A DNA stretch of 64,000 bases from an uncultured Rhodospirillaceae bacterium (lineage in GTDB: Bacteria; Pseudomonadota; Alphaproteobacteria; MPNO01; UBA830): positions 191,471-255,470 of the forward strand of contig CAXBCP010000001.1 of assembly GCA_963974055.1 (NCBI GenBank). The letters run 5' to 3'. Below the pieces are notes generated by a model, which was given only the letters and a program-made list of their open reading frames with translations, did no database searches and was not told the origin of the DNA. Positions 11,911 to 63,964 of the stretch are shown here, one piece after another. The position numbers were made by a program, and so were the translations under genes. Position 1 is the first letter of the stretch. Every line of letters starts with the position of its first letter.

Positions 11911-11962
11911 TTTCGATTTCGGCGAAATGACAACGGCGGGCCTGTTCGGGTCCGCCGTTTTT

Positions 11963-18005: not shown

Positions 18006-18047
18006 CGGTTCTACTCCTGCGTGTCAATCGTAATGCTGCGACCTTGC

Positions 18048-19058: not shown

Positions 19059-19219
19059 GATTTGCTCCCTAAGCAATATCGTTGTTACAAGCGCATTTTT
19101 TTTTAATACGCGCCTGAATGAACCCTATCAGACGATTTGGTCGCCGTTAAGCGGCAAAATTTCGAATCAACGACGGGTGGGAGCGGCGTGTGCCGCGCCG
19201 AACGGGTTCGGTGGAAGCG

Positions 19220-20716: not shown

Positions 20717-20796
20717 CTTTTCCTTACGCACTCTTTCTGTCGACGGGATCAAAGAGCCTTTCTTTTAAAAAAACGCAGTCCACGCCGACGCTACCA

Positions 20797-20928: not shown

Positions 20929-21244
20929 ATTAATTCCGTGATATTGCATGATCGCCATGAGCCGAGACTCTTGGAGTGACTACCGAACTCCTCTTGGCTA
21001 CGCTCAATCATGTCGAGGGGACCCAGTATGGTGTGATTTGTATGGGATTATTTTCGCGAGACACTGTAATAATGCACAATAAACTGTCTAATGATTGATT
21101 GTGAATCGTCCTATCTGGACGACAGGGGCAGGGTCTTCGCAGGCTTGGTATCGCCCGCATGTGGACGTCATTTGTACCTCAGACGGATTGCCGCACTATT
21201 GTAAGTCACCATCGGAAGGCGGCTTCTGCAGGACAAAGAAAATT

Positions 21245-22870
21245 ATGAAAATTGATTACAACCTGAACGGCGAGGGTGCAAAATCCGTATTTTTTGTAAT
21301 TTGTGCTTTGGTCTTTTTCGCGTTCTTTGAGTTCTACTACAAAATTAATGCGGCTTACCCGTCGGCTCTTCCCCTCGGTTATATCTTGACGGTATTTGCA
21401 GGCATTGTTTTCTCGCGAGTGAAGTATGAAGATTTTTCACCTGCGTTTAAAATCTGCTTCCGGGGGCTTGCTGTCCTTATCGGGCTGTATGCCGCGTTCG
21501 TGTTTCCCGATTATCCGATCGTTGTTGATAAATATGGCGGTACCGAAGGCGCCATCGTGCTTGGCGGCTGGTTTTTGGGCGTCTTATGTTCCCTGCTAAC
21601 GCTATGGCGCCCTTCCTTTCTTCTCGCGAGCGGGTTCTATCTCTGGTGGAGCAAACAGATCGCTGGAACTGTTACCGGATTCCCGTATCACACCCTGCTC
21701 GACATTTTACCTGCAATTGAAATCTCCGCCTTTATGTCGACAGCCTTGTTTTTGCTCGTGCTGATGGGACAGCCTTGGGTTCTCTTGGGCAACAACCGGT
21801 TCGTTTCAGATATTCGCTCGTTCTTTACACAGCGCCGGCGGTATCTCGGCGACTTGATAGTATTCGTGGCAATTTCCATGCAGCTGGCTAATTATTTTAC
21901 GTCGGGCTTAGGTAAAGCCAGCTTGAATGGCGGCGTATTGTCGTGGTCGCTTGAAAATAACCTGGCCGATATTTTCGACGTAGCTGTCATAAACGGACAA
22001 CTTTTCTGGCAGGATTATCCATTCGCCGTTTCGACGTTTTCCGCGATCTTCGACTATCTGAAACACCCGATGTCGATTGGAGTGCTTGTATTTCAGCTTT
22101 TTGCAATCATCGCATTCCGCTCCAGAAATCTTCTGGTGTTTCTATTTCTCGTATTCGATCTGATGCATTTCGGCATTTTTGTTTCGGTCGGTGCGAATTT
22201 CGGACCCTGGTTCATCCTCAACCTGGTAATCTTGGCTGCCGCTGCGAGGCTTGACGATCGTTTCTTTTCGGTAACGGCGGCGAGCGCATCGGCTGCGTTG
22301 GTCATTATATTCGCCTTTGCGTCGCCGCCATTTTGGTCGGCTTGGTTGCGCTGGTACGATACGCCAGCCATCAACACCACGTATTTTGTTGCCGAAGACG
22401 TAACCGGAACGCAAACACGTGTTCCGGTCACCTATTTCGGATTTTACTCCTATCCGATTGCACATATGAGCTTCGGACTTCCGCCTGGGCAGTATCTGCC
22501 GGTGGGAACGAATGGCGGGGTGCTTGACTACAAAATCATGGTCAAGGCGCGGACTTGCGCCTTCACGGACGCCGATATGGTTTCTTCGCAGCACGCCGAG
22601 CGATGGTCGAACAGCGATATTCCCGAATTCATCAGGCATTATCACCGCCAGATGGTAACAAAGTACGGTCCGGGGCAGTCCCGTAATTTCAATATATACC
22701 CCCATCATTTCTGGACGCGTCCCAAGATTTCTAACGCTTTTCGCAGACTTGATAAGCGCAAGATCGTCGCCTATGTAATGAAAACAGATTCCCTCTGCCT
22801 GCGACGTAGTCCTACTGGCGTTGAATCCCGCCTCGTAGCCCACAATGAGATTCGTATAGATGTACGATGA
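21245..22870 (+). CDS. large polytopic integral membrane protein of unknown function (island cargo)
   Basis: Starts at ATG 21245 (MKIDYNLNG...). At least 10 predicted TM helices, then a soluble ~150 aa C-terminal domain. Low GC relative to the flanks. No motif recognised with confidence. Its ORF overlaps the DCC gene by 11 nt. Confidence 0.5.
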   Translation: MKIDYNLNGEGAKSVFFVICALVFFAFFEFYYKINAAYPSALPLGYILTVFAGIVFSRVKYEDFSPAFKICFRGLAVLIGLYAAFVFPDYPIVVDKYGGTEGAIVLGGWFLGVLCSLLTLWRPSFLLASGFYLWWSKQIAGTVTGFPYHTLLDILPAIEISAFMSTALFLLVLMGQPWVLLGNNRFVSDIRSFFTQRRRYLGDLIVFVAISMQLANYFTSGLGKASLNGGVLSWSLENNLADIFDVAVINGQLFWQDYPFAVSTFSAIFDYLKHPMSIGVLVFQLFAIIAFRSRNLLVFLFLVFDLMHFGIFVSVGANFGPWFILNLVILAAAARLDDRFFSVTAASASAALVIIFAFASPPFWSAWLRWYDTPAINTTYFVAEDVTGTQTRVPVTYFGFYSYPIAHMSFGLPPGQYLPVGTNGGVLDYKIMVKARTCAFTDADMVSSQHAERWSNSDIPEFIRHYHRQMVTKYGPGQSRNFNIYPHHFWTRPKISNAFRRLDKRKIVAYVMKTDSLCLRRSPTGVESRLVAHNEIRIDVR

Positions 22871-27290: not shown

Positions 27291-28721
27291 GTGAAGGTAA
27301 CGTTTGTCGGACACGCTTCGATCCTTGTAGAAGCTGGCGGTCTGAACATTTTGTCGGATCCTTGGTGGGCCGGTTCCTGCTTCGGTACTCAATGGTGGCC
27401 TTACCCCAAACCCGCTGTAGATGCCGTCGATCCGGAGCGGCTCGACTATATTTATATTTCGCACGGACATGCCGATCATTTGCATAACGGGACGCTCAGC
27501 CGGTTGCCGAAGACGGCGGTCTGCCTTGTCGCGCAGGAACTGAACCTGTCTGAACCGCTAAAGGGGCTCGGTTTCGAGGTAATCGAGGTCGCACCGAAAA
27601 CCGACTATGCGCTGAACGAAAAGGTGACGATTGAAATTACGCCGACGGTAAGCGGGGACAGCTTTTCGGTTATCCGTGATGATCGGCAGATATGCATGAA
27701 CATGAACGACGCGCTTCATGCGGCGCCGCGGGATATACAGACGCAAATGATCGGTTACCTGAACGCCAAGTACGGGCAGGCGGATTATATGTTCTGCGGC
27801 TTCGGCATCGCTTCGCATTTTCCGATATGTATTGAGGTCCCCGGGCGCGATCGCGATCGCACGGCGGCGGAGCGCCAGAAACATTTTAACCGGGAATGGG
27901 CGTACATCGTTCACGGGCTTGGCCCCAAATACGCCTTTCCGTTTGCTGCAGATGTCATCTTTCTCGATGAAAATATTCGCTGGGCGAATTCCGCAGTTCA
28001 TAACGGCGAACGCCCCGTCGACGTGCTGACCGGCCCGTTTGCGACGCCGCAAACCAAAGCAATCGACATATATCCGGGCTTTTCGATAGACGGGGACAAT
28101 ATAGTTGTCGACGCTCGTCATCGGCCGGTCGTCGCGGCGGAGATCGACGCCGCATTCGAGTCCGAAACCAGGATGGCCAACCGGTCGACCGCCGTTAGCG
28201 CAGACGGGGTCGAAGATCTGGTTGTCCGTCTCCGTGAGAACCTTGAGACGTGCCGGCAGTATCTGTGCGAGATTGACAACAACTACCGGTTTCTCATCGA
28301 GTTCATCGGCAATGATGCCGGCATTGAAATTTGTAAAACAGGCAACCGGCTCGATGCTTTCAGTATCAAAATTTCGGATATCGACAAGACTGACTATGCC
28401 GTCGTATTTCTGACGAAATATTCATATCTGCGGCGGTCGTTGTCCGATGAGTTCGGTCACGAAGTTCTTTCGGTGGGCTCGGGAGGTGTATTCAGATACC
28501 GCAGCCGCGCCGAAGCGGATGCCAACCTTCATGGCGAATTAATGCTTGTTCTGCGGACCCATACCGCAGCGCCGCCCAGTCGTTTTGGGGATCAGTCAAA
28601 ACTTAGGTATCAGATGAAAACCCTGGTCAAGAAGGCGCTGCGGGTTGCACTTCGCCGCCCGGCAGCGGTCGATCTATACGATAACCGGCACTGGATCAGA
28701 TATGAAGATCATAATGGCTAA
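27291..28721 (+). CDS. MBL-fold metallo-hydrolase with extended C-terminal domain
   Basis: GTG start preceded by AGGGAAG. N-terminal beta-lactamase-fold motifs: HASILVEAGG, YIYISHGHADH. A ~250 aa C-terminal extension of unknown function follows. Confidence 0.65.
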   Translation: MKVTFVGHASILVEAGGLNILSDPWWAGSCFGTQWWPYPKPAVDAVDPERLDYIYISHGHADHLHNGTLSRLPKTAVCLVAQELNLSEPLKGLGFEVIEVAPKTDYALNEKVTIEITPTVSGDSFSVIRDDRQICMNMNDALHAAPRDIQTQMIGYLNAKYGQADYMFCGFGIASHFPICIEVPGRDRDRTAAERQKHFNREWAYIVHGLGPKYAFPFAADVIFLDENIRWANSAVHNGERPVDVLTGPFATPQTKAIDIYPGFSIDGDNIVVDARHRPVVAAEIDAAFESETRMANRSTAVSADGVEDLVVRLRENLETCRQYLCEIDNNYRFLIEFIGNDAGIEICKTGNRLDAFSIKISDIDKTDYAVVFLTKYSYLRRSLSDEFGHEVLSVGSGGVFRYRSRAEADANLHGELMLVLRTHTAAPPSRFGDQSKLRYQMKTLVKKALRVALRRPAAVDLYDNRHWIRYEDHNG

Positions 28722-30465: not shown

Positions 30466-31845
30466 TCAGCCCCGCTTGATCAGATACCCGGACGAACCCC
30501 CAAGGGCGGGATGTTGCCGATCCGTATTTTTTGCAGGGTTCCCGGGAGCCGCGGGGTCGGGATTCGCAACGTCTGAATCTGCAGCGTCCGGCATCGTCGT
30601 ACGCTCTTTCGCAAGCTCCTGGCCTACCATCCATCGCGTAACCACGATAATCGCCAGCACGTGGTAATACAGGTCAAAGGTGGCGACATTCAGAAACACG
30701 CCGGCGGTGGCATACCCGACAAGGCTGACCTGCGTCATCTTCGACAGGTCGCGGGCCCATTTCAAATTCGGGCTGCCGCGCGCGAGATGGTTCGTTCGCG
30801 AACACGTGAAGAAAGCGACCGTTCCCAGCATTAGAAACAGGGTAAGACCGGGATAACCGTGTTCGCCCAGGACTTCGAAATAGATGCTGTGCGGCGCCCT
30901 GACAACCGGGGATTCCGGGTTGTAGATCGGCCACAAACGTTCCTGCGTATTGACCTTGAAACCGCCTCCCAGAAGGCGGTCGTTAGCTAGATTGATCGCG
31001 AAAAGCCATGCATCGAAACGGCCGGAGGCGGATTCGTCTTCTTCGTAGGAATCGATCGTATCCATCCTGTCGAACCACTTTTGCGGCATGAACGACAATA
31101 CGCCGACAATACAGACCGCAGCGGCAAAGGCCACCGGCAGTTTTTTGCTCGATCTGAGCCACAGGAAAAAGCCCATGGTTGAAAGCGCAAGCAGCGCCCC
31201 GCGGGAATATGTCCCGATAATGGCGGCCAGCGTCAGAAGAATCATGACGCTCAACATGTGTCGCACCCACTTGTTGGTGGCCACCAGTTGCAGATAATGC
31301 ATCAGCGGCATCGTCATGATCAGCGTCAGCGCAAGCTGGTTGTTGTCCTCGAAAAAGCTGCCGGGAGGTCCCCAGACCCGGTAGTTGCCGCCCGTCATTA
31401 TCGAAAACAGACCGCCCCGGACACCGTAAAAACCGATCGAAAACACAATCATAGCGATTAGCCAATTCAGGCGGACCTTGGTTTTGATCATTGCCAGCGT
31501 CAGAATCGTCATGATCTGGATTTTGCCGAATTCAATAAAACGCGTTTCGGCACGATCCGGCGCGAGTGCGGTAATTGTTGTTATCGCGGTCCAGGTAACA
31601 AAGAGAAACAGTACCACCGATACGGGTGATATCGGTATTCTCTTGTTCTCCCGGCTGATGGTGAACGCGATAATGGTGACAACGGCCGCAATCAGCGCGA
31701 ACTGGAAACTATAGGCGAACCCATAAGTCAGCCGATGCGGGTTCATATAGGATATCCACGAGAACAGCAGAATCCCGGTCCACGGCTGCTTGAATATCAG
31801 AGGGATCGAGCCGAAAACGATAAGCGTAATCAGGATATCGCGCAT
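30466..31845 (-). CDS. O-antigen ligase / Wzy-like polymerase family protein (exosortase A-associated O-glycosylation ligase type)
   Basis: 459 aa, about 12 TM, with a periplasmic loop (YSRGALLALSTMGFF..., IYFEVLGEHGYPG). Architecture is as in the XrtA-locus ligase family. Divergent from the glycosyltransferase at 32028. Confidence 0.7.
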   Translation of the reverse strand: MRDILITLIVFGSIPLIFKQPWTGILLFSWISYMNPHRLTYGFAYSFQFALIAAVVTIIAFTISRENKRIPISPVSVVLFLFVTWTAITTITALAPDRAETRFIEFGKIQIMTILTLAMIKTKVRLNWLIAMIVFSIGFYGVRGGLFSIMTGGNYRVWGPPGSFFEDNNQLALTLIMTMPLMHYLQLVATNKWVRHMLSVMILLTLAAIIGTYSRGALLALSTMGFFLWLRSSKKLPVAFAAAVCIVGVLSFMPQKWFDRMDTIDSYEEDESASGRFDAWLFAINLANDRLLGGGFKVNTQERLWPIYNPESPVVRAPHSIYFEVLGEHGYPGLTLFLMLGTVAFFTCSRTNHLARGSPNLKWARDLSKMTQVSLVGYATAGVFLNVATFDLYYHVLAIIVVTRWMVGQELAKERTTMPDAADSDVANPDPAAPGNPAKNTDRQHPALGGSSGYLIKRG

Positions 31846-32027: not shown

Positions 32028-33374
32028 ATGAAGATATTATTAGTCTCCTGGTATTTCCCTCCCTGCAGTACCATGGGTGCTCTTCGTGTCGGGAAATTCG
32101 CGAAATACCTCGTCGGCGAAGGACACGACGTCCGCATCGTCTGCGCCAAAGACCAGCCTTACGCGATGGATCATCCCGTCGAGGTTCCGGAAGATTTCAT
32201 TTACCGGACGATCTGGCGCGATATCAACTGGTTGCCCGCCAGCATCCAGCGGGTACGCGCAGGCATCAAGTCTTTACTTTCCGGGAAAACCCGCGCGCCT
32301 GGCGTCGGGGCGCAGGATGCACCGCCGGCTGCGGCAAACACGCCGCACCAACCGAATGGCATTCTCCGCCTGATTCTGAATTTCTATCAGAACCTGACGA
32401 ACATTCCCGACGGTATGATTGGCTGGCTGTTACCAGCCTTGCGGGCGGGGCGCAAGGCGACGAAGGGCTGGAAGCCGGATGTCGTTTTTGCCAGCGCGCC
32501 GCCATTCACGACCCTGATCGCAGGGCGTATTATTGCCAAACGCGCAAAGGCGCCGCTTGTGATCGAATATCGCGACCGGTGGATCGAAGATCCCTACGGT
32601 CTCGAAGACCCGAAATTCCGCCAGTGGCTCGATCGCAGAATCGAAGAATGGTGCGCCCGTCCGGCCGTCGGCGTGGTGACGGTCTCCGATCCCTGGGCGG
32701 AGGATTACCGCCAGCGGTGGGGAAAGCCCGTTGCGGTTGCGTATAACGGCTTCGATCCGGACGATGTTGCCAAACTCGACGACGTGCCGCCTTCAGGATC
32801 CGACAAACTGAAAATTCTGTATACGGGTATCATATACCCCGAGCGCCGTGACCCGACCCCTTTATTCGAGGCACTGTCCAGACTGGGCGCCCGGCGTGAC
32901 GAGATTTCCGTAGATTTTTACGGGGCAAATGTCGGCCGGCTCGAGGGGGCGGTTGCCGGACATGCGCAGCAGGACATCGTGTCGCTGCGGCCCGGCATAC
33001 CGTTTGCGGAGGCCCTGAAACTGCAGCGTCAGGCCGACGTTCTTCTGCTGTTGCAATGGAACGACCCGCTCGAAGCAGGGAATGTGCCGGGGAAACTGTT
33101 CGAATACCTGGCCGCCCGGCGTCCCGTGCTGGGTATTGGTTTCGAGCAGGGCGTACCGGCGCGTATTCTTAGGGAACGCAATGCCGGGCGTGTTCTAAAC
33201 GATCCCGATCAGATTGCCGCTTACCTTACCGAGCTTCTCGACCAGAAAAAACGGAATGGCAGCATAGACCTGCTGCCGGCCGATGTATCCGCCGGTCTTT
33301 CCCGGCCGGAGCAATACAGGCATATCGAACGCATGCTTGGAGACGCCGGCCAGTTACGCGCCGACGCGCGCTGA
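32028..33374 (+). CDS. glycosyltransferase (GT-B fold, GT4-like)
   Basis: Starts MKILLVSWYFPPCSTMGALRVGKFAKYL. The C-terminal sugar-donor half has the E..KLFEYLAARRPVLG motif. Confidence 0.7.
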   Translation: MKILLVSWYFPPCSTMGALRVGKFAKYLVGEGHDVRIVCAKDQPYAMDHPVEVPEDFIYRTIWRDINWLPASIQRVRAGIKSLLSGKTRAPGVGAQDAPPAAANTPHQPNGILRLILNFYQNLTNIPDGMIGWLLPALRAGRKATKGWKPDVVFASAPPFTTLIAGRIIAKRAKAPLVIEYRDRWIEDPYGLEDPKFRQWLDRRIEEWCARPAVGVVTVSDPWAEDYRQRWGKPVAVAYNGFDPDDVAKLDDVPPSGSDKLKILYTGIIYPERRDPTPLFEALSRLGARRDEISVDFYGANVGRLEGAVAGHAQQDIVSLRPGIPFAEALKLQRQADVLLLLQWNDPLEAGNVPGKLFEYLAARRPVLGIGFEQGVPARILRERNAGRVLNDPDQIAAYLTELLDQKKRNGSIDLLPADVSAGLSRPEQYRHIERMLGDAGQLRADAR

Positions 33375-38985: not shown

Positions 38986-40683
38986 ATGAAAACTTTGCCT
39001 GATCTGTGGCGTACCGTAATGCCGTTCGCGGCAATGCTGTTTGCCGTCCTTGCCGTCATTTTTTTCGGATCAGGTACCTCGGCCGATATGAGGGTGAAGC
39101 TCAAGGATGGGCGCGTCCTGAATTTGCCGGTCACGCCCGACCAGATCGATTCCGTGACCTTCGGTTCCGGTCCAGCCGGGCCGGTCCCGGCAGAATCGGG
39201 CGCAATGCGCCGGAAACAGCCGGTCGGCCGGGCGGCGGCTCAGATCAAGGCAGACGAAAAAAGTATCCGGACATCGCGGGATGCCGAAAAGCGGGCACTG
39301 GACGCGGCGAAGGCAGCCGGCGCGGCAGCCGATACCGCCCGCGCCGCCGCCGCCCTGGCGGAACGGGAAGCGGCGGCCGCCACAGCGGCGCGGAAATCGG
39401 CGGAAGAGGCAGCGCGCGCCGGCCCCGCTGCAACCCCCGGCCCGGCATCGGCCTTGAATTCGTCGCCGCCGGTTCGCCGCAGTACCGGTAAGCCGGTCAG
39501 GGCGGCGGGGCGTGTCCTGAATATCGGCCCCGGAAAAAAGTACAAACGCCCCAGCGACGCGGCCGGCGCGGCGCAGGACGGAGACACGGTTGAAATCGCC
39601 GCCGGCACCTATAAGGGAGATGTCGCGCAATGGACCGCCAGCAACCTGACGATCCGCGGCGTCGGCGGCCGCGTGCACCTGGATGCGGATGGCCGGTGTC
39701 AGGCGGGCAAGGCAATATGGGTTATCAGCGGCAATGACACCGCAGTCGACAATATCGAGTTTTCGAATTGCCGTGTTCCCGACCGGACCGGTGCCGGCCT
39801 TCTCTTTGAAGGCCGCAATCTGGCGGTGCGCAACAGTTTCTTTCACGACAACGATATGGGGCTTGTGACCGGCAACCGGCAGAAAGGCGACGTGCTGGTC
39901 GAAGGGTCCGAATTCGCCCGCAACATGGCGCCGGATAAAAATGGGCTCGGCCACAATATCTATATCGGCCGCGAGCGCAGCTTTATCCTGCGCAACAGCT
40001 ATGTACACGGAGCGGTCCGGGGCCATGACATCAAATCGCGCGCCCGCGAAAACCGGATATTGTATAACCGCATCGTCGATGGGCCGGCCGGCGCGGCGGG
40101 TTACCTGGTCGATATTGCCGAAGGCGGCCGCGCCTGGCTGGTGGGTAATGTGTTTCACAAGAGCGCCCGGGCGGGCAACCGTCCCGTGGTCAGCTTCGCC
40201 GCGGAGCGGCGGGCCGCCGCCGACCGGATCGCGCTGATCAACAATACGCTCGCCAACGAATTCGACGGCGGCGTCTTTATACAGAACAGGGGTGGCGCGG
40301 CGGCCATACTGATCAACAATATTCTGGCCGGTCCCGTCGATCCCGCAACGGGCCCGGCCGAACTCCGTAACAATCTGATCGTCCGCAACAATCCGATGAT
40401 CCGTCCGCCAACGGCATCGGGCGGCCAGCCGGTAAAGGCATCGGCCGGGAAAGGCCCGCTGTCGGGGAATTTCATCGCGCCCGAGGCGGGTTTCACGAAC
40501 CCCGGTCAAATGGACTTTTCTCTGTCCCGCCGCTCGCCGGCGCGCAATACCGGTGCGGAACCGGGGCTGGTAAATCGGTGGCCGGCGCGCCCGTCCGCGC
40601 ACTATCTTCATCCGCGCCGCCAGGCGCCGCGGCCGAATGACGGCAGGATCGATATCGGCGCCTATGAATATTCGGCCCCGTAG
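38986..40683 (+). CDS. secreted/membrane-anchored right-handed parallel beta-helix protein with Ala-rich coiled linker
   Basis: AGGAGA SD before the ATG. An N-terminal TM/signal (MPFAAMLFAVLAVIFFGSG) is followed by an Ala/Glu-rich ~100 aa segment, then beta-helix coils (NIEFSNC, RNSFFHDN, RNSYVHG, NNTLANE, NNILAG, RNNLIVRNN). The terminal IDIGAYEY motif is common in this fold. Confidence 0.7.
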   Translation: MKTLPDLWRTVMPFAAMLFAVLAVIFFGSGTSADMRVKLKDGRVLNLPVTPDQIDSVTFGSGPAGPVPAESGAMRRKQPVGRAAAQIKADEKSIRTSRDAEKRALDAAKAAGAAADTARAAAALAEREAAAATAARKSAEEAARAGPAATPGPASALNSSPPVRRSTGKPVRAAGRVLNIGPGKKYKRPSDAAGAAQDGDTVEIAAGTYKGDVAQWTASNLTIRGVGGRVHLDADGRCQAGKAIWVISGNDTAVDNIEFSNCRVPDRTGAGLLFEGRNLAVRNSFFHDNDMGLVTGNRQKGDVLVEGSEFARNMAPDKNGLGHNIYIGRERSFILRNSYVHGAVRGHDIKSRARENRILYNRIVDGPAGAAGYLVDIAEGGRAWLVGNVFHKSARAGNRPVVSFAAERRAAADRIALINNTLANEFDGGVFIQNRGGAAAILINNILAGPVDPATGPAELRNNLIVRNNPMIRPPTASGGQPVKASAGKGPLSGNFIAPEAGFTNPGQMDFSLSRRSPARNTGAEPGLVNRWPARPSAHYLHPRRQAPRPNDGRIDIGAYEYSAP

Positions 40684-42378: not shown

Positions 42379-42630
42379 TCACGCGGCCAGCTTCTGGTCC
42401 ACGAATTCGGTCAGGCTGCCGACGGATTCAAATGATTCGGCCGAAATTTCGTCGTCTTCGACGAATATATCGAATTGTTCTTCCAGCGCCGTGATCACCG
42501 TGACGACGGCCATCGAGTCGAGTTCGGCTATACTGCCGAGCAGCGGCGTGGATGCCGTGAAATTGTCGACCCTGTCTCCGAGTTGAAGGGTTTCCCCCAA
42601 CACCTGCTTCACGACGTCGATAGTTGCCAT
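42379..42630 (-). CDS. acyl carrier protein
   Basis: 83 aa. The phosphopantetheine attachment motif is LGSIAELDSMAVV (DSM variant of DSL). Four-helix ACP-like composition. Confidence 0.75.
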   Translation of the reverse strand: MATIDVVKQVLGETLQLGDRVDNFTASTPLLGSIAELDSMAVVTVITALEEQFDIFVEDDEISAESFESVGSLTEFVDQKLAA

Positions 42631-42753
42631 TACATTTGCCCCGTACGCATAAATTCATCATTTCAATCAGGTCTTTATATTCCACGCGCGGCGTCTGGAC
42701 AAAGACCAATCGTGGTATCCTTACCGTTATCGGAGCGATCATCGGGAACTTTC

Positions 42754-43461
42754 ATGCGCGTCATTCGTAAATTCAGGGGGTTGGCCGCCGAGTTCGGCTT
42801 TGGCAATGCAGTGCTCTACGTCTTCGGGCTGGCGCTGCGGGGGATATGCCCCGGTGCATCCGTTTATCGCTATTACATCGTTGCGCAGCCGGTGCCGGAC
42901 AAAAACCTGCTGCCGGCCCGGCGCGGCAAGGCGATTGCGGTCCGCGAGCTGAAACCCGGCGATCCGGCGTTTTCGGCCCTGCCGCTCGATCAGGACGTTC
43001 TGGCCTACCGCTTTGCCCAGAACGTGGTCTGTCTCGGCGCGTTCCAGAACGAAAAGCCGATCGGCTGTCTGTGGATGTGTTTCGATTCCTATGACGAAGA
43101 CGAAATCAGGTGCACTTTCCGCCTCGCTCCCGTCGGGCGTGTCTCCTGGGATTTCGACGTTTATCTGCACCCCGACGCGCGGCTCGGTTTTGCCTTTCTG
43201 CGGCTATGGGACGAAGCGAACGCGATTTTGCGCGACCGGGGTATCGCCTGGTCGCTCAGCCGTATTTCCGGCTTCAACCCGGGGTCGATGGCGTCCCATG
43301 CCCGCATGGGGGCGGTTCGCGTGGGAAGTCTGATTGCGCTGAAAGGCCCGAAAAGGCAGCTCGTCTGGAGCACTTATTCGCCCGTTTTCAGCTTCCGGCG
43401 GCTCGACGGAAACCTGCCTTCCTATACCGTTTCTCCGCCCGGGCATGCGGAGACGCGTTGA
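42754..43461 (+). CDS. GNAT-fold acyltransferase-like protein (candidate N-acyl amino acid synthase type)
   Basis: 235 aa from MRVIRKF. Size and position match the small acyltransferase found with ACP and ligase genes in exosortase loci. No strong motif was seen, so the assignment is tentative. Confidence 0.45.
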   Translation: MRVIRKFRGLAAEFGFGNAVLYVFGLALRGICPGASVYRYYIVAQPVPDKNLLPARRGKAIAVRELKPGDPAFSALPLDQDVLAYRFAQNVVCLGAFQNEKPIGCLWMCFDSYDEDEIRCTFRLAPVGRVSWDFDVYLHPDARLGFAFLRLWDEANAILRDRGIAWSLSRISGFNPGSMASHARMGAVRVGSLIALKGPKRQLVWSTYSPVFSFRRLDGNLPSYTVSPPGHAETR

Positions 43462-45091: not shown

Positions 45092-46353
45092 GCGACGCTC
45101 CCGAAGCCAGGAAACGCGAAAAACCGAAACCGGTCACGGCGCCGATAGAACAGTTCCCGGTCGAGAACGGGGACCTTGTCATCGGCGGCGTGCCGTTATC
45201 CCGTCTGGCCCGTCAGATCGGGGCGACGCCGTTTTTCGCCTATGACCGCGATCTGATCTCGCAACGGATCGCCCATCTGCGCGAAATCCTGCCCGATGGC
45301 GTGAACCTGAATTTCGCGATGAAGGCGAACCCCATGCCGGCCGTCGTGCAGCATGCCGCGGGACTGGTCGACGGAATTGACGTCGCCTCCGCCCTCGAAA
45401 TGAACGTGGCGCTCGACACCACCATGCCGCGCCATCGCATCAGTTTCGCCGGGCCCGGCAAGACCGAGGCGGAGATCGCGCGCGCCGTAGCGGCGGGGAT
45501 CGTGCTCAATCTTGAATCCGCGAACGAAATGGAAATCGTTGCCCGCCACGCCGCGGAACAGGGTGTCGTGGCGCCGGTCGCCGTTCGGGTGAATCCGGAT
45601 TTCGAACTCAAGACGTCCGGCATGAGGATGAGCGGCGGGCCGAAGCAGTTCGGTGTCGATGCCGAATGCGTGCCCGACATGCTCCGGCGCATGGGCGAAC
45701 TGCCGACCCTGGAATTTCATGGCTTTCATATATTCAGCGGTTCGCAGAATCTGCGGGCGGAAGCGCTGATCGAAGCCCAGACGAACACGGTCGATCTTGC
45801 AATCGCGCTGGCGGCCGTTGCGCCCGGACCCGTAAGACACCTCAATATCGGCGGCGGGTTCGGCATCCCGTATTTCCCCGGCGACACGCCGCTCGACCTC
45901 ACGCCGGTTGCCGAGAATCTCGACGGATTGATGGCGCGGATCAAAACCGAGCTGGGCGATGTCCGCGTCGTTATCGAACTCGGACGCTATATCGTCGGCG
46001 AGGCCGGCATCTATGTCAGCCGGATCGTCGACCGCAAGGAATCGCGCGGAAAGGTATTCCTGATCACCGATGGCGGGCTGCATCATCAGCTCGCTGCATC
46101 GGGCAATTTCGGGCAGGTGATCCGGAAGAACTATCCCGTCGCGATCGGCAATCGCATGGACGAGCCGGCGACCGAAACCGCGGACATCGTCGGCTGTTTG
46201 TGCACGCCGCTCGATCTTCTCGGCGACAAGGTGGACATACCGGCGGCCGCGGTCGGCGACCTTGTGGTGCTGTTTCAGTCGGGCGCCTATGGGCTGACGG
46301 CCAGTCCCACGGCTTTTCTCAGCCATCCGGTGCCGCTCGAGGTGCTGGTTTGA
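45088..46353 (+). CDS. PLP-dependent decarboxylase, Orn/DAP/Arg decarboxylase fold-III family
   Basis: GTG start overlaps the ligase stop (GTGA). Motifs as in diaminopimelate decarboxylase: NFAMKANP with the PLP-lysine, GGGFGIPY, and the C-terminal CTPLD. Confidence 0.85.
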   Translation: MSDAPEARKREKPKPVTAPIEQFPVENGDLVIGGVPLSRLARQIGATPFFAYDRDLISQRIAHLREILPDGVNLNFAMKANPMPAVVQHAAGLVDGIDVASALEMNVALDTTMPRHRISFAGPGKTEAEIARAVAAGIVLNLESANEMEIVARHAAEQGVVAPVAVRVNPDFELKTSGMRMSGGPKQFGVDAECVPDMLRRMGELPTLEFHGFHIFSGSQNLRAEALIEAQTNTVDLAIALAAVAPGPVRHLNIGGGFGIPYFPGDTPLDLTPVAENLDGLMARIKTELGDVRVVIELGRYIVGEAGIYVSRIVDRKESRGKVFLITDGGLHHQLAASGNFGQVIRKNYPVAIGNRMDEPATETADIVGCLCTPLDLLGDKVDIPAAAVGDLVVLFQSGAYGLTASPTAFLSHPVPLEVLV

Positions 46354-48233
46354 CGGGACTCGTCGGATGGGCCGGCGCGGGTCGGTCGGGCGACCACGTT
46401 TACGAGCTTTCTTCCCCCGATATCGTCGCCCGGATGCTCGATGCCGGACATGCGCATGAAGGATCGGCACGGCAGTCGGAAGCGGTTGCCGCTGCCGGTA
46501 TCGGCGCGCAGGGCTGGTCGTCCGACGTTTCCGTGCACAGCGCCGGGGATATCCTTGCCGTCGTTTACGGCCGGGCGCGGTGGCGCGGCGAAAAATACAG
46601 GCAGCGTGCGGTCGCGCAGGGCGGCGCAGCGGCCCTTATCGAAGCCTGGCGCGACAAGGGAATATCGCTGTTCGATATTGTCGGCGGTCCGGCGTCTTTT
46701 GCGATCGTCGATTCCGCCCGGCATGAAGCGCTGGTCGCTATCGATCGTATCGGTGTCCAGCAGATGTCGTTTGCAACAACCCCTGCCGGGGCATTTGTCT
46801 TTGCATCCGATGCGCGGGCTGTCTGCAGTCATCCGGCGCTCAACCCGGATATTTCCCGTCAGGCATTGTTCAATTATCTCTATTTTTATATCAGCCCGGG
46901 ACCGGCAACGGTTTTCGAGGATATCGAAAAGCTCCAGCCCGGACAGTATGCCCATTTCCGCAACGGCGCGGTGTCGCGGTCGTTCTATTGGCAGCCCGCA
47001 TATACCGAATTCTCCGACCGCGATGACGGGGCCTGTGCCGAGCAGGTGCGCGACAGCCTGAGGGACGGTGTCGGGGCGGCGGTGGCCGCGGTTCCCGGTG
47101 CAGAGCCGGGCGCCTTTCTGAGCGGCGGGCTCGACAGCACGTCGGTTGCGGGTTATCTGGCCGGCCACCGGCCCGGGGCGAAGGGTTTCACGATCGCCTT
47201 CCCGGAAGAAAAATACAACGAACTGCCCTGGGCGGAGGCGGGTGCCCGGCGGTTCGGCATTGATCATGTCACACATGTGCTGACGCCGGCGGAAACGGTG
47301 GACGCGATTCCGGGAATCGTCGAGGCGCATGACGAACCCTATGGCAACTCGTCGTCCGTGCCGGCTTATATCTGTGCGCGGGTGGCGCGGGATAACGGGG
47401 TCGGGCTTCTGCTTGCCGGCGACGGCGGCGACGAAATATTCGCCGGAAACGAGCGCTACGTCGAGCAGCGCCGCTACGATGCATGGCGCCGTATCCCGTC
47501 ACCGTTCCGCAGGTTACTGCACGGACTGCTGCTCAACGGGGCCGGCCGCAATACGGGCGACGGCGTGCTGGCGCGGGCCACCGCCTATGCAAACCGGGCG
47601 GAGACACCGCTGCCCGACAGGCTGCAGGCTTACAACATCATCGCGACATCTGGATTGTCGCGTCTGTTCCATCCCGATTTCCTGGCGGCGATCGACCCCG
47701 GAGAGCCGCTGCGGATCGCGCGCGAGATCTATCACCGGCCCGACGGCGCTACGGAGCTGAAACGTATGCAGTTTCTCGATCTCCACATAACGCTTGCGGA
47801 TAACGATCTGAGGAAGGTCAACAGGGCGTGCGAGCTCGCCGGCGTCCGCGTCGCCTATCCGATGCTTGACGAAGACCTCGTTTCGTTTGCGGCGGCGATC
47901 CCGTCGGCAACGTTGTTGCCCCAGCGCCGGCTGCGCGGCTTCTACAAGGACACGATGGCAGGGTTTTTGCCGCCGGAAATTCTGAGCAAACAAAAGCACG
48001 GCTTCGGCATGCCGTTTTCCGAATGGACCCGCGCGCCGGGCGATCTTCGCGATATGGCCGAAGAGGGGCTTCGGGCTTTTGCGACCCGCGATATTCTTGC
48101 GGACGGGATTATCGACGAGATCCGGTCCGATCTGACCGGCGTCCGAGAAAGCCGGTTCGGCGGGCTGATCTGGGACGTCATGATGCTGGAATTGTGGCTG
48201 TCGCGTCATTCAGATATTGCGACACTACATTGA
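46350..48233 (+). CDS. asparagine synthase (AsnB) family protein lacking the N-terminal catalytic cysteine
   Basis: TTG start overlaps the decarboxylase stop (TTGA). The N-terminus is (M)TGLVGWAG; canonical AsnB begins MCGIAGW. The C-terminal synthetase domain is intact (FLSGGLDSTSV PP-loop, ELPWAE..., YKDTMAGFLPPEIL). The 855-aa ORF-track frame is the same reading frame read through the preceding gene. Confidence 0.7.
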   Translation: MTGLVGWAGAGRSGDHVYELSSPDIVARMLDAGHAHEGSARQSEAVAAAGIGAQGWSSDVSVHSAGDILAVVYGRARWRGEKYRQRAVAQGGAAALIEAWRDKGISLFDIVGGPASFAIVDSARHEALVAIDRIGVQQMSFATTPAGAFVFASDARAVCSHPALNPDISRQALFNYLYFYISPGPATVFEDIEKLQPGQYAHFRNGAVSRSFYWQPAYTEFSDRDDGACAEQVRDSLRDGVGAAVAAVPGAEPGAFLSGGLDSTSVAGYLAGHRPGAKGFTIAFPEEKYNELPWAEAGARRFGIDHVTHVLTPAETVDAIPGIVEAHDEPYGNSSSVPAYICARVARDNGVGLLLAGDGGDEIFAGNERYVEQRRYDAWRRIPSPFRRLLHGLLLNGAGRNTGDGVLARATAYANRAETPLPDRLQAYNIIATSGLSRLFHPDFLAAIDPGEPLRIAREIYHRPDGATELKRMQFLDLHITLADNDLRKVNRACELAGVRVAYPMLDEDLVSFAAAIPSATLLPQRRLRGFYKDTMAGFLPPEILSKQKHGFGMPFSEWTRAPGDLRDMAEEGLRAFATRDILADGIIDEIRSDLTGVRESRFGGLIWDVMMLELWLSRHSDIATLH

Positions 48234-57288: not shown

Positions 57289-58527
57289 ATGCAGGATCTT
57301 CTCTTCCTTGTGCACCGGATTCCCTTTCCGCCCAATAAAGGCGACAAGATACGGTCGTGGAATATTCTCGAATATCTGGCCGGTCGGTATCGCGTTCATG
57401 TCGGCTGTTTCGTGGACGATCCGCATGACTGGCAGTTTACCGGCCGTATCGAGGATATCGCGGCGTCGACATTCTTCAGAAAACTGGACCGCCGGCGCGG
57501 GCTGGTCCGGTCTTTCGCAAACCTGCTGACCGGCGATCCACTGACCTGCGGGTATTATCGCGATCGCGCGATGGCATGCTGGGTCGATGAGACGGTGAAG
57601 CAGAACAGGATTTCACGCGTCTTCGTGTATTCGTCGTCCATGGCGCAGTATATTCCCGACAACCCGGCTGCGGACGCGCGCGTTGTCGTCGATTTCGTCG
57701 ATATCGATTCCGACAAGTGGCGGCAATATGCCGAACGGAAACCGTGGCCGATGAAACAGGTCTATGCGCGTGAAGCACGGACCCTGTTCACGGTCGAAAA
57801 ACGGGTTGCTGCCGCTGCGGATGCGGCTGTGTTCGTGTCGGAAGACGAAGCGGCTCTTTTCAGGACCATGTCGCCTGATACCGCGGCAAACGTTCATGGA
57901 ATCGCCAACGGTGTCGATTGTGTGTTTTTCGATCCCGCTTGCGGTTCCGGGTCACCCTATGATCCGGGCCAGACGACCCTCGTCTTTACAGGGGCGATGG
58001 ATTACTGGGCGAATGTCGATGCGGTCTGCTGGTTTGCAGATGATGTCTTTCCACGAATCCGCGCTGCCCTTCCGGCGTGTGAATTCGTAATTGTCGGTGC
58101 CAATCCCACGCCCGATGTCGTGAAATTGGGTACCCGGGCCGGGATTACAGTCACCGGGCGCGTCGCCGATGTCCGTCCCTATATCGTCCATGCGACAATA
58201 TCGGTCGCCCCGCTTCGGGTGGCGCGTGGTATACAGAACAAAGTACTGGAGGCGATGGCCCTTGAAAAGGCCGTCGTCGCAACGCTCCAGGCCATGGAAG
58301 GCATCGATGCGACGGATGGCGAAGAAGTCTTCGTCGCCGAAGATGCAGCCGAATTTGCTGACACCGTGCTGTCGCTGGCGGCGGCGTCAGATCGACATAT
58401 TGCCGGTGGTCGCGCGCGGCGGCGTGTGCTCGAATCCTATGGCTGGTTAACCAGTCTTCAGAAATTCGAGAGTATTTTGGAGGGTAACGCGTCGGGTGAT
58501 AAGCTCTCCGGCGTTTCAGGGAATTAG
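57289..58527 (+). CDS. GT4 glycosyltransferase (sugar transferase, PEP-CTERM/EpsH1 system-associated type)
   Basis: Starts MQDLLFLVHRIPFPPNKGDKIRSWNILEYL, characteristic of this subfamily. C-terminal donor-binding GT-B half is present. Confidence 0.8.
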   Translation: MQDLLFLVHRIPFPPNKGDKIRSWNILEYLAGRYRVHVGCFVDDPHDWQFTGRIEDIAASTFFRKLDRRRGLVRSFANLLTGDPLTCGYYRDRAMACWVDETVKQNRISRVFVYSSSMAQYIPDNPAADARVVVDFVDIDSDKWRQYAERKPWPMKQVYAREARTLFTVEKRVAAAADAAVFVSEDEAALFRTMSPDTAANVHGIANGVDCVFFDPACGSGSPYDPGQTTLVFTGAMDYWANVDAVCWFADDVFPRIRAALPACEFVIVGANPTPDVVKLGTRAGITVTGRVADVRPYIVHATISVAPLRVARGIQNKVLEAMALEKAVVATLQAMEGIDATDGEEVFVAEDAAEFADTVLSLAAASDRHIAGGRARRRVLESYGWLTSLQKFESILEGNASGDKLSGVSGN

Positions 58528-58540
58528 TAGAGTGAGTCAA

Positions 58541-60124
58541 ATGCAGTCCGGCACCGATGGCGAAGACGTCGAAGCGACCGCTTCGGCAACGGCGTCGCCT
58601 GTCAGCGATATGGCCGTTTCGGAACGATGGCGCTTGGCATTGATCGCCGTGTCGGTCGCGATCGTCGGATTGTGCGCCGTCTTCTGGGGCACCGCCAGCC
58701 AGATGGTCGAAACGTGGTACGAATCCGCGACGTTCAACCATGGCTTCATGATCGTTCCGATATGCGGCTGGCTTATCTGGGAGCGCCGGGAGGCGATCGT
58801 GAAATATGTCCCGAAACCCGATTTCCGGGGTCTTGGGATTATTGCGGTCTGCATGGTCATATGGACCGTCGCGGATGCGGCAAGCGTTCAGTCCATCATG
58901 CAGTTCGCGCTGGTCGGAATGATCCAGGGGGCCGTACTGACCGTGCTCGGCTGGCGCCTGGTCCGGGCGATGCTGTTTCCGCTCGTGTTCCTGTTTTTTG
59001 CCGTTCCGTTCGGCGACTTTCTGATTCCGACATTGCAGGACGTGACCGCGGCGATGGTCGTCGAGGGTCTGCGGATAATCGACATCCCGGTCTTTATCGA
59101 CGGCGTTTTTCTGTCGATTCCAAGCGGCAACTTCGAAGTCGCCGAGGCCTGTTCCGGGGTGCGTTTCCTTATCGCGACGATCGCGCTGGGCTGTCTGTTT
59201 GCCAATCTCAGCTTCCGCACCCCGCTGCGCAGGTCGATCATCCTGTTTCTCGCCGTCCTTGTGCCGATTGTCGCCAACGGGATTCGCGCCTTCGGCATCG
59301 TTTATATCGCACACATCACCGATCATACGGTTGCCGTCGGGGTCGATCACCTGGTGTACGGGTGGATATTCTTCGCGTTCGTCACGATCGTATTGCTGGC
59401 GATCGGGATGACGTTTCGCGAAACCGATGGCGACAATGAAATTTACATGCCGACCGACGATGACCGCGTTGCCGGCCGGTTCAGCAATCCGAAAGGGCTG
59501 ATCGCCGGTGCGGTAGCGTCTCTGGCAATTGCGGTGGTCGGTCCGGCCTATGCCGGTGTGATGCTTGAACGCGGCGTGGTAAGGGTTATTGCGCCGCTGG
59601 CGGCGCCCGCCGTCGGGAACGGCTGGGAGCCGGTCGGCAAGGCGGAGACTGCGTGGCGGCCGAAATTTATCGGCGCAGATGCCGAACTGATGACGTCGTA
59701 CCGGAAGTCGGGCGCGCGGGTGCATCTGTATATGGCCTATTACACCCATCAACGGCAGGGCGCGGAGCTCGTCAATTTCGCCAATACATCCGTCGATCGG
59801 AACTGGCAGCGGTCGGGAAGCGGATTCACCCCGGTCCAGATCGGCAGTACCGACCAGGTGGTGAAATCGACCCGGTTGCTGGGGCGCAACAGTCGTCGTC
59901 TGGTCTGGGAATGGTACTGGATCGGCGGGAATTTCACCTCGGACCGGTATTTTGCGAAGGTTTACGAAGCGATTGCCAAACTTTTCGGTCGGCACAAGGA
60001 AGCCGCGGCCATCGTCGTGGCTGCCGATTTCGACGAAAGCGTCGCCGACGCCGACCGAACCCTGCGGGACTTTCTCGCCAATCTCGGCAGCATCGAAGAG
60101 ACGCTGCATAAATCAACGCGATGA
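58541..60124 (+). CDS. xrtA: exosortase A (XrtA) fused to EpsI domain
   Basis: 8-TM exosortase domain with the conserved ATFNHGF block, the catalytic Cys motif EACSGVRFLI and Arg motif ANGIRAFG. C-terminal ~220 aa: EpsI/DUF3485-like periplasmic domain. Start ambiguous (GTG 58496 or ATG 58541). Confidence 0.8.
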   Translation: MQSGTDGEDVEATASATASPVSDMAVSERWRLALIAVSVAIVGLCAVFWGTASQMVETWYESATFNHGFMIVPICGWLIWERREAIVKYVPKPDFRGLGIIAVCMVIWTVADAASVQSIMQFALVGMIQGAVLTVLGWRLVRAMLFPLVFLFFAVPFGDFLIPTLQDVTAAMVVEGLRIIDIPVFIDGVFLSIPSGNFEVAEACSGVRFLIATIALGCLFANLSFRTPLRRSIILFLAVLVPIVANGIRAFGIVYIAHITDHTVAVGVDHLVYGWIFFAFVTIVLLAIGMTFRETDGDNEIYMPTDDDRVAGRFSNPKGLIAGAVASLAIAVVGPAYAGVMLERGVVRVIAPLAAPAVGNGWEPVGKAETAWRPKFIGADAELMTSYRKSGARVHLYMAYYTHQRQGAELVNFANTSVDRNWQRSGSGFTPVQIGSTDQVVKSTRLLGRNSRRLVWEWYWIGGNFTSDRYFAKVYEAIAKLFGRHKEAAAIVVAADFDESVADADRTLRDFLANLGSIEETLHKSTR

Positions 60125-62112: not shown

Positions 62113-62967
62113 ATGACCCAAGAACTTTTCGCCACTGTTTACCGCATGTATGCGCCGTCGGCATGTCGCGCGGCGAAACTTCTTCGCCAGGTGTTGGCGG
62201 GAGCGGCGACCTGTTTGTGCATTTTGGTCGCTTCGGGGGCGCCGGTTGCCGCTGACGACGCGCTGGTGGATACGATCGTGCAGATCAAACCGAGCATTGT
62301 GGGTGTCGGCACTTTCCAGGAAATCCGCCGTCCGCCGTCCAATCTGCTTGGCACCGGTTTCAACGTGATCGACGACCGGCACATCCTGACGAATTCCCAT
62401 GTTCTGCCCAAATCGATTAAAAATTCCCGGCGCGAATATTACTGCATTTTCGTTGGCACTGGCCGAAGCGCGAAAATCGTGCGGGTCAGCGTTGTCATGC
62501 GCGACGAGGCGCATGACCTTGCGCTGCTGCGGGCGGACCGGCCCCTTACGTCCAAACCGCTCCGGTTGCGGTCGGCGGTCAACGCCAGGGAAGGGATGTC
62601 CGTGGCGTTTACCGGCTTTCCGATCGGGGCGGTGCTCGGTCTTTATCCGGTAACCCACCGCGGCATGATTTCGGCGAAAACCCCCATTGCGATTCCGCAG
62701 GCATCGCCAAAGCGGCTCGATCCCAAAATGATAAAGCGGCTGCGGGGCAGTTTCGAGGTCTTTCAACTCGACGCGACCGCCTATCCCGGCAATAGCGGCA
62801 GCCCGTTATACGACCCGAACAATGGCGACGTCGTGGGCATCGTCAGCAGCGTTTTTGTAAAGTCTTCCAAGGAAAAGGCGCTGTCCGATCCCAGCGGCAT
62901 AACCTATGCCATCCCGTCGGACGTCGCTATTCAGCTCCTGCAAAGAGCAGGTTTGCTCAAACCCTGA
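62113..62967 (+). CDS. trypsin-like (S1 family) serine protease, catalytic domain only
   Basis: Signal peptide LAGAATCLCILVASGAPVAA. Catalytic triad contexts: TNSHV (His), DLALL (Asp), GNSGSP (Ser). No PDZ domain. The ATG abuts the asnB stop. Confidence 0.75.
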   Translation: MTQELFATVYRMYAPSACRAAKLLRQVLAGAATCLCILVASGAPVAADDALVDTIVQIKPSIVGVGTFQEIRRPPSNLLGTGFNVIDDRHILTNSHVLPKSIKNSRREYYCIFVGTGRSAKIVRVSVVMRDEAHDLALLRADRPLTSKPLRLRSAVNAREGMSVAFTGFPIGAVLGLYPVTHRGMISAKTPIAIPQASPKRLDPKMIKRLRGSFEVFQLDATAYPGNSGSPLYDPNNGDVVGIVSSVFVKSSKEKALSDPSGITYAIPSDVAIQLLQRAGLLKP

Positions 62968-63010
62968 AGCATTGCGGGGCTGCCGGCCAATCGTCCAGTT
63001 CGAACCGGTA

Positions 63011-63964
63011 TCAGGCCTGTGCACTCAGCCGCCAGATAATCCAGATGATCGAAAACAGACCGAGCGCTGCCAGTGTAATCGGCGACTGGATGAACGGCAG
63101 TATGTTGTCTTCCAGAAAGGCGATGACGCGTTGCAGCGCGTTCGATTTTCCGCCGAGCTGTTTCGGCGGTTCTTTACCGCCGGCGCCGCCGGTTGTCCGC
63201 TGGACTGTGCCGGAGGGCCTCAGGGGCTGATCGCCCTGGGCGAATTTGATCGCAGTGCCCCCGTTCAGGTCTACGACGAAGAAGCTGTTATTTTCCTGCA
63301 GGTGCAACAGCGCGAAATCGCCGAATCCGGCGATCGAAAAGGTCACCATGCCGTCAGTCGTCTGTTCAGGGTTGAGAAGCGTGACGACCAGGTCGGTCAC
63401 CGTCGCATCGATCACCGAAGCGATCAGCCCGCCGCTGGCGCTTTGCCCGCCCCCGCTTTCGCCGCCCGGTGCGGCTTCGCCGGGCACGGAATTTACAAGT
63501 GCGCGCACGATATCTGCCGTCGAGCCGGTCGATTCCCCGGCCGTTGCACCGGTATTTTCCCGGGGGTCGGAAAGCGCCTGGTTTTCCGCGCCGCCGGTCA
63601 GTTCGTCACGGACCGTCCGCGTCAGGTCATTGTCCTCGGCCCCCTGCAGTCCGCTCGTGCCCTGATCGCCGATAATCGTGAAGCCGGAACCGGCCGCCCC
63701 GCCGATTTCCGTATTATTCGAGATTTCGGGCGGTGTGGCGCCCAGGCTTCCGGCGGGCGGCACCCGTGGGGCCGTCAGCGGGGCCTGAAGACCCGGTTGC
63801 GCCGATTGCAGGATTGTGGGTCCGGACAGGACGGTATTCTGAACTGCCGTAAGCATCATCGATACTGCGATCGCCTGCAGCGGGAGGATCAAACCCCGCA
63901 CCTTTAGTTTCAGCTCATTGAAAATGGCTGTAGCTGTTATTTTCGACTGGTTGTCTTGGCGCAT
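63011..63964 (-). CDS. secreted Gly/Thr/Ala-rich protein with degenerate PEP-CTERM-like C-terminal anchor (candidate exosortase substrate)
   Basis: N-terminal signal-like segment (KLKVRGLILPLQAIAVSMMLTA). Long G/T/A/S-rich low-complexity middle. C-terminus ...PFIQSPITLAALGLFSIIWIIWRLSAQA: a Pro-containing turn, a ~16-residue hydrophobic helix, then a short polar tail with a single Arg. Confidence 0.45.
   Translation of the reverse strand: MRQDNQSKITATAIFNELKLKVRGLILPLQAIAVSMMLTAVQNTVLSGPTILQSAQPGLQAPLTAPRVPPAGSLGATPPEISNNTEIGGAAGSGFTIIGDQGTSGLQGAEDNDLTRTVRDELTGGAENQALSDPRENTGATAGESTGSTADIVRALVNSVPGEAAPGGESGGGQSASGGLIASVIDATVTDLVVTLLNPEQTTDGMVTFSIAGFGDFALLHLQENNSFFVVDLNGGTAIKFAQGDQPLRPSGTVQRTTGGAGGKEPPKQLGGKSNALQRVIAFLEDNILPFIQSPITLAALGLFSIIWIIWRLSAQA

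Follow-up and report, generated by a model that had tools for sequence, protein, structure and literature searches.

The 64-kb window, i.e., the whole stretch of DNA analysed here, stems from an uncultured marine alphaproteobacterium and carries, at positions 58541 to 60124, a gene in which an exosortase domain is continued by a C-terminal EpsI domain (hereafter XrtA-EpsI). The nearest species-representative proteins share 75% and 72% identity with the product, and both come from alphaproteobacterial MAGs. A canonical XrtA/PEP-CTERM exopolysaccharide locus surrounds the gene: XrtA-system markers above cutoff (NCBIfam) were all found between 30466 and 62112, the set comprising TIGR03097 and the families named in the following lines, where the number is the position of the gene and the match lies above the curated cutoff unless stated otherwise.

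43520: acyl-CoA ligase (TIGR03098)
45088: PLP decarboxylase (TIGR03099)
~46350: second AsnB-like gene, below cutoff
48270: export protein (TIGR03027)
49429: chain-length determinant (TIGR03007)
51067: tyrosine autokinase (TIGR03018)
52933: outer-membrane protein (TIGR03016)
54440: ATPase (TIGR03015)
55372: deacetylase (TIGR03006)
56247: FemAB-like protein (TIGR03019)
57289: glycosyltransferase (TIGR03087)
58541: XrtA-EpsI
60178: amidotransferase (TIGR03108)

Upstream, between 20 and 42 kb, lies a lower-GC variable block with glycosyltransferases, a flippase and the 'exosortase A system-associated' O-ligase (TIGR03097), while transporters of the Liv-type ABC and TRAP kinds are encoded at 1-20 kb. 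PrsK, PrsR and PrsT were absent from the ORFs scanned within the window and may be encoded in another part of the genome. The features of XrtA-EpsI itself and of one neighbouring gene are as follows.

58541..60124, plus strand: long-form exosortase A CDS (XrtA with C-terminal EpsI domain), 527 aa plus TGA stop, assigned by NCBIfam and Pfam domains
58541..58621, plus strand: N-terminal tail, residues 1-27, predicted cytoplasmic; acidic, poorly conserved and predicted to be disordered
58622..59419, plus strand: exosortase (EpsH, 8-TM) catalytic membrane domain, residues 28-293, delimited by TIGR03109, PF09721, AF2 helices and hydropathy
59150..59158, plus strand: motif 1, Cys204-Ser-Gly206, with the putative nucleophile at the predicted periplasmic start of a TM helix (motif definition from PMC1569441)
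59276..59287, plus strand: motif 2, Asn246-Gly-Ile-Arg249 (motif definition from PMC1569441)
59348..59362, plus strand: motif 3, His270-Leu-Val-Tyr-Gly274 (motif definition from PMC1569441)
59420..59488, plus strand: linker, residues 294-316, predicted cytoplasmic, delimited by the junction alignment and by low pLDDT at residues 296-298
59489..59566, plus strand: ninth TM helix (TM9), residues 317-342, delimited by hydropathy, an AF2 helix at 317-342 and the start of the PF11984 match at residue 328
59567..60121, plus strand: EpsI globular domain (PF11984/TIGR02914), residues 343-527, predicted periplasmic and modelled as a Mog1p/PsbP-like alpha/beta sandwich
63011..63964, minus strand: gene for a secreted hypothetical protein with a conserved non-PEP tail, with homologs at the same position

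The reading frame of XrtA-EpsI runs without internal stops or N bases to the TGA at 60122-60124, and the single XrtA-EpsI polypeptide described by the first-pass annotation is indeed encoded by one uninterrupted ORF, with the EpsI/DUF3485 domain fused in frame. Translation from the ATG at 58541, 13 nt behind the stop of the upstream glycosyltransferase gene, gives 527 aa, whereas an alternative GTG at 58496 would give 542 aa, the longest possible product; a GGAGG lies 12 nt upstream of this GTG, but the longer form overlaps the glycosyltransferase gene by 32 nt. Public gene calls start at ATG 58541, and the database protein P0001 is 100% identical over 527 aa. The choice of start codon is slightly ambiguous and affects neither domain; it is irrelevant to function because the first 25 residues vary and disorder is predicted for them, the N-termini of homologs differing in length and sequence (alignment) and residues 1-25 having a pLDDT below 50 in the AF2 model.

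The exosortase part scored 331.9 bits with the XrtA model TIGR03109 (curated cutoff 208, residues 37-294), 211.6 bits with the general exosortase model TIGR02602 (cutoff 105.55) and 57.4 bits with the exo/archaeosortase signature TIGR04178 (cutoff 23), all from NCBIfam, and 233 bits with PF09721 from Pfam (cutoff 25.7, residues 42-290). The EpsI part reached 124.8 bits with TIGR02914 EpsI_fam (NCBIfam, cutoff 42.8, residues 356-517) and 121.6 bits with PF11984 (Pfam, cutoff 26.1, residues 328-516), so that with domain HMMs, the check proposed alongside the original description, both modules score far above curated cutoffs. XrtA was the sole exosortase subtype model above its curated cutoff, in agreement with the earlier XrtA assignment: XrtW scored 276.6 against 425 (residues 36-515) and XrtD 180.3 against 400 (residues 57-515; both NCBIfam), and XrtV (99 against 313), XrtB (72.6 against 275) and XrtC (52.8 against 300) also remained below their own cutoffs. 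By every membership criterion open to testing, the protein belongs to the exosortase family, to the XrtA subtype and to the EpsI domain family.

According to the founding description of the family, its only invariant residues sit in three motifs, Cys-x-Gly, Asn-x-x-Arg and His-x-x-x-Gly (PMC1569441). The Cys and Arg strings quoted in the first-pass annotation are present and intact, EACSGVRF at residues 202-209 (nt 59144-59167) and ANGIRAFG at residues 245-252 (nt 59273-59296), and C204, G206, N246, R249, H270 and G274 are invariant in 64 fused homologs down to ~40% identity (alignment), as is G247 of motif 2. Such conservation of the three motifs is what selection on an active site would be expected to leave. 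As a side observation, the His motif H270-x-x-x-G274, which the first-pass annotation had overlooked, is intact too.

The full-length AF2 model (pLDDT 83.9, pTM 0.82) has helices that agree with a scheme of 8 + 1 TM segments, and those at residues 206-224, 228-260 and 265-291 start or finish at C204, R249 and H270. Loops rich in K/R (82-96, 137-145, 225-231 and 292-317) alternate with K/R-free loops (48-67, 155-205 and 258-268). The predicted topology of the exosortase core is N-in with 8 TM helices and a cytoplasmic C-terminal end, in which Cys204, Arg249 and His270 would sit at the periplasmic ends of the last three core helices and a predicted periplasmic beta-hairpin (residues 185-199) would directly precede Cys204. 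A PDB sequence search with full XrtA-EpsI gave nothing meaningful, its top match being a de novo TM nanopore (E 0.004), and a similar solved structure was not found for the exosortase membrane core.

Linker and TM9 are conserved in position among homologs, the linker being 20-28 aa long and variable in sequence (junction alignment). TM9 is probably the counterpart of the N-terminal membrane anchor of stand-alone EpsI and, in the model, returns the chain to the periplasm, so that the EpsI domain is predicted to share the periplasmic side with the putative active site. The EpsI part had been given as ~220 aa; the fused domain itself stands, but the globular domain measures ~185 aa and the rest consists of the 23-aa linker and the TM helix. 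Within the domain, W362, E409, R445, R453 and K473 are invariant, and its modelled fold resembles the Mog1p/PsbP-like envelope proteins DcrB (6e8a), LpqN (6e5d), PA0094 (1tu1), PsbP (2xb3) and the SciW/Eag chaperone (6xrr).

A single ORF of this kind could in principle arise by frameshift, chimera or read-through in an organism whose xrtA and epsI are in fact two genes. Nothing was found in favour of such an artefact; two-gene arrangements of EpsH and EpsI are known from some species, e.g., GSU1979/GSU1978 and DVU_A0055/56 (Table 1 in PMC1569441). The identical 527-aa ORF is, however, present on 12 independently assembled contigs, two of them Tara Oceans assemblies, with identical gene neighbours in all four of those places listed, and the ORF is therefore not a frameshift or assembly artefact as judged from the assemblies, which contradicts the frameshift that had been named as grounds for rejecting the fusion. 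Orthologs at 60-83% identity share the same continuous frame and the same length, and together with the conserved position of linker and TM9 and the prevalence of the fusion among relatives described below, this leaves the artefact a next to negligible probability.

When the full-length protein was used as query, both Pfam domains were found in 119 of the 120 best homolog clusters (476-654 aa), the sole exception being a 300-aa protein on a 1.9-kb contig, and the named clusters among these 120 are called 'exosortase A'. A scan of species-representative genomes (tblastn) yielded 63 loci in Alpha-, Beta- and Gammaproteobacteria, including cultured strains of Plasticicumulans, Sphingosinicella and Lentisalinibacter; the majority of the matches extend through residues 515-527. 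One of these loci (L054), where the match covered residues 24-294 only, was considered as a candidate for an unfused XrtA and rejected, its ORFs showing the fusion, so that even this locus argues against an artefact. As a control for query bias, the exosortase domain alone (residues 24-300) was searched against a representative library of 1.84 billion proteins (50%-identity cluster representatives): 133 of the 150 best representatives are at least 459 aa long, and 135 of the 150 carry an EpsI domain (local EpsI HMM). The other 15 were likewise not accepted as truly unfused, as most of them end in or just after TM9 and are likely truncated gene calls at contig ends.

These counts agree with what has been on record since the founding paper of 2006, in which EpsI is either fused to EpsH or adjacent to it and in which Table 1 gives one locus tag for both in eight genomes, namely Nitrosospira multiformis, Thiobacillus denitrificans, Dechloromonas aromatica, Geobacter metallireducens, Nitrosomonas europaea, Nitrosococcus oceani, Azoarcus EbN1 and Rhodospirillum rubrum (Rru_A3120; PMC1569441). 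The NCBI name of TIGR02914 is 'exosortase C-terminal domain/associated protein EpsI'. The fused form is the usual XrtA architecture, known for two decades, and the rarity that the first-pass annotation implied by setting the fusion against a separate epsI gene did not hold, since fused proteins are the majority among XrtA relatives; the 1:1 stoichiometry it noted is true by construction and holds for most XrtA genes.

Compared with the proteobacterial long-form exosortase A proteins (e.g., Rru_A3120 of R. rubrum, NE1797 of Nitrosomonas europaea, Tbd_0290 of Thiobacillus denitrificans and Daro_2406 of Dechloromonas aromatica; PMC1569441), XrtA-EpsI has the same PF09721 + PF11984 architecture, the same three invariant motifs and the same placement inside an XrtA exopolysaccharide locus, and the difference found was one of sequence alone, with none in architecture or motifs; NCBI-named relatives ('exosortase A', 515-565 aa) are ~42-49% identical to it. 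The two-gene systems of Methylobacillus sp. 12S (epsH/epsI), Geobacter sulfurreducens (GSU1979/GSU1978) and Desulfovibrio vulgaris (DVU_A0055/56) contain the same modules in the same EPS-locus context (PMC1569441), yet there EpsI is encoded by a gene of its own next to that for EpsH and brings an N-terminal anchor with it, whereas the equivalent of this anchor in XrtA-EpsI is TM9 of the single chain, following the cytoplasmic linker.

A distant homolog is archaeosortase A (ArtA) of Haloferax volcanii, which shares the TIGR04178 signature region and the conserved Cys and Arg but, unlike XrtA-EpsI, is archaeal, recognises PGF-CTERM rather than PEP-CTERM, lacks an EpsI domain and brings about lipid anchoring. 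In the work of Abdul Halim et al. from 2018, ArtA is said to need Cys173, Arg214 and Arg253. Sortase A of Gram-positive bacteria (LPXTG) is analogous in function, as a Cys/His/Arg transpeptidase whose target is likewise a tripartite signal at the C-terminus (PMC1569441). It is not homologous to exosortase; it is a soluble beta-barrel with a single anchor and lipid II as acceptor. The transpeptidase chemistry of exosortases is suggested by motif conservation and by analogy to archaeosortase and sortase. A protein without catalytic activity that serves solely as a scaffold for the EPS export machinery would be compatible with a 2018 review in which ArtA is the experimentally studied member and exosortases had not been analysed experimentally as of then (PMC6098224); against this, all six residues of the three motifs are kept, and their invariance across the 64 homologs makes such a scaffold highly improbable.

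We consider the gene very probably to be an exosortase A in the common long form with a C-terminal EpsI domain, lying in a canonical XrtA/PEP-CTERM exopolysaccharide locus. Exosortase is thought to recognise the PEP-CTERM of Sec-exported proteins, to cleave it and to transfer the protein to a periplasmic acceptor (PMC1569441). Following the family literature, XrtA-EpsI would recognise Sec-exported proteins by a C-terminal signal consisting of the PEP motif, a TM helix and a basic cluster, would cleave near the motif via a Cys acyl-enzyme and would hand the cleaved protein to a putative periplasmic acceptor linked to exopolysaccharide export. Most likely, EpsI would serve as a non-enzymatic binding or docking domain, with substrate, acceptor or the hydrophobic tail after its release as candidate ligands, and the fusion would hard-wire two partners whose genes stand side by side in other species.

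Strict and lenient scans of the 64-kb window for canonical PEP-CTERM tails gave spurious frames only, while the same scan, as a positive control, picked up canonical PEP-CTERM tails beside fused XrtA genes in two of the other loci (L014 and L020). The lack of a PEP-CTERM gene in one window means little, because R. rubrum, which has a fused XrtA, carries its single PEP-CTERM gene elsewhere in a 40-kb region (PMC1569441).

The gene at 63011-63964 is a real, conserved gene that is limited to this narrow clade and to this locus. Homologs occupy the same position in four further loci (L001, L002, L003 and L015), the gene is also present on all four listed contigs with an identical XrtA, and in L064 and L066 it lies between a trypsin-like protease and a Bac_transf priming glycosyltransferase. 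An overlapping plus-strand ORF (62906-63907) was discarded as a coding frame: homologs in the minus frame scored 189 bits against 81, and GC3 was 0.65 in the plus frame against 0.72 in the minus frame, the latter close to neighbouring genes. The family comprises 27 clusters, all 'hypothetical' and without a Pfam domain, whose members have a signal peptide and a C-terminus of the form '...NVLPxxxSPITLA-(hydrophobic 14-17)-WRxS...'. In this tail SPIT stands in place of the PEP motif and a single Arg follows the TM helix, and NCBIfam, with its PEP-CTERM model TIGR02595, gave no match at all to the protein or its last 49 residues at E<=10. The first-pass annotation had put this tail forward as a possible substrate of the fusion, a proposal for which positive support was not found. 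The product is possibly a C-terminally anchored periplasmic protein, which may be linked to the adjacent protease.

This neighbour bears on a different reading of the enzyme, i.e., a dedicated long-form exosortase of XrtW- or XrtD-like type with a non-PEP substrate signal, for which the 'SPIT-TM-WR' tail at 63011-63964 would be an example. Several observations are in keeping with it: the XrtW and XrtD models align end to end, though below cutoff, a PEP-CTERM gene was not found within the window, and the neighbouring product is secreted, confined to the same clade and locus, and ends in a tripartite-like C-terminus that ranks with the best-conserved regions of the protein (column identity 0.73 over the last 30 residues against ~0.4 in the N-terminal half). 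Yet the subtype scores single out XrtA, the locus is built entirely of XrtA-system equivalogs, and fused XrtA genes elsewhere adjoin canonical PEP-CTERM tails (L014, L020) or, as in R. rubrum, go with a single PEP-CTERM gene at another place in a 40-kb region. Moreover, the tail has only the one Arg after its TM helix, the core block at residues 181-240 is conserved as much as the tail (0.70), and the distant homolog in L015 continues beyond its TM helix with a long basic extension, which is what a plain anchor in the membrane would show. Taken together, we judge a dedicated non-PEP enzyme very unlikely, and exosortase A remains the preferred reading. The related proposition that the XrtA-EpsI of this clade may process a non-PEP signal beside or instead of PEP-CTERM, with the '...NVLPxxxSPITLA-(TM)-WRxS' tail as the candidate, is in our view quite unlikely.

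In conclusion, the XrtA-EpsI fusion is real but already known and typical; the family definition has included the fused EpsI domain since 2006, and correct annotation aside, the gene is of little consequence. The window thereby holds what looks like a complete XrtA exopolysaccharide/floc-type locus of a marine alphaproteobacterium. The confident EpsI model, in which TM9 tethers a predicted periplasmic Mog1p/PsbP-like module, may aid the design of exosortase experiments, as may the invariant EpsI residue set (W362, E409, R445, R453 and K473), neither of which is specific to the locus at 58541-60124. The clade-specific neighbour at 63011-63964 with its conserved non-PEP tail is the only lead of some, albeit mild, novelty; if this tail were indeed processed, it would represent a new class of sorting signal for an XrtA-type enzyme.

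The start of the fused XrtA-EpsI gene is ambiguous within the region 58479-58541, where two codons compete. GTG at 58496 has a GGAGG motif 12 nt upstream but would create a 32-nt overlap with the preceding glycosyltransferase gene, whereas ATG at 58541, from which the database gene calls start, is preceded by just a weak GAGTGAG. A start codon also bears on how the second asparagine-synthase-like gene of the locus is read:

46350-48233 (listed as ORF 45666-48233), (+), second asparagine-synthase-like gene, partial match to TIGR03108, the amidotransferase model of the XrtA locus

Its product matches TIGR03108 below the cutoff and only from model position 99 onwards. If the gene starts at TTG 46350, as is probable, the initiator Met is followed by TGLVGW and the usual Met-Cys-Gly opening is absent; on this reading of the sequence the protein therefore appears to lack the glutaminase nucleophile Cys.

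Between about 20000 and 32000, GC content drops to 0.51-0.55, compared with about 0.60 in the rest of the window. This stretch is a variable, polysaccharide-specific block encoding an acyltransferase, a luciferase-like monooxygenase, an epimerase/dehydratase and an O-ligase of the exosortase A system-associated model TIGR03097, which suggests a horizontally exchanged cassette. For several long ORFs within or edging the exopolysaccharide locus, nothing in NCBIfam passed the thresholds applied; they may in part be spurious high-GC ORFs and in part uncharacterised members of the locus.

30466-31845, (-), TIGR03097 O-ligase within the low-GC block
19220-20752, (-), long ORF, no NCBIfam match
21095-22870, (+), long ORF, no NCBIfam match
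27291-28721, (+), long ORF, no NCBIfam match
32028-33374, (+), long ORF, no NCBIfam match
38986-40683, (+), long ORF, no NCBIfam match
42475-43461, (+), long ORF, no NCBIfam match

Positions 1-20000 carry unrelated housekeeping genes. No PrsK/PrsR/PrsT regulators, which are expected in proteobacterial genomes with this system, were seen among the ORFs scanned across the whole window.

3651-8544, (-), Liv-type branched-chain amino-acid ABC transporter components
16116-18005, (-), fused TRAP transporter permease

In two other genomes, canonical PEP-CTERM tails (VIPEPGTLGLLGVGLVALAGLSRRRRKA in L014 and KIPEPSSLALLGLGLIGAGIASRRKAKKTA in L020) lie less than 10 kb from fused XrtA-EpsI genes and served as the positive control for the tail scan.

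L014, end about 15360, + strand, PEP-CTERM tail
L020, end about 20697, - strand frame, PEP-CTERM tail

Two further genes lie downstream of XrtA-EpsI:

63011-63964, (-), conserved secreted 'hypothetical' protein
62113-62967, (+), trypsin-like serine protease (PF13365), directly after the TIGR03108 amidotransferase

The secreted protein belongs to a tiny family of 27 clusters, for which there is no Pfam or NCBIfam model. Its members have a signal peptide, and their C-termini share a strongly conserved tail, 'NVLPxxxSPITLA-TM-WRxS'. On fuller contigs the gene is flanked, within the XrtA locus, by the trypsin-like protease on one side and a Bac_transf priming glycosyltransferase on the other, an arrangement found in the same narrow alphaproteobacterial clade. 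Related XrtA loci, at least 12 of them, likewise have the protease right behind the amidotransferase. It is covered by no XrtA-specific NCBIfam model and may be an accessory factor, so far unmodelled, of the XrtA system in Alphaproteobacteria.
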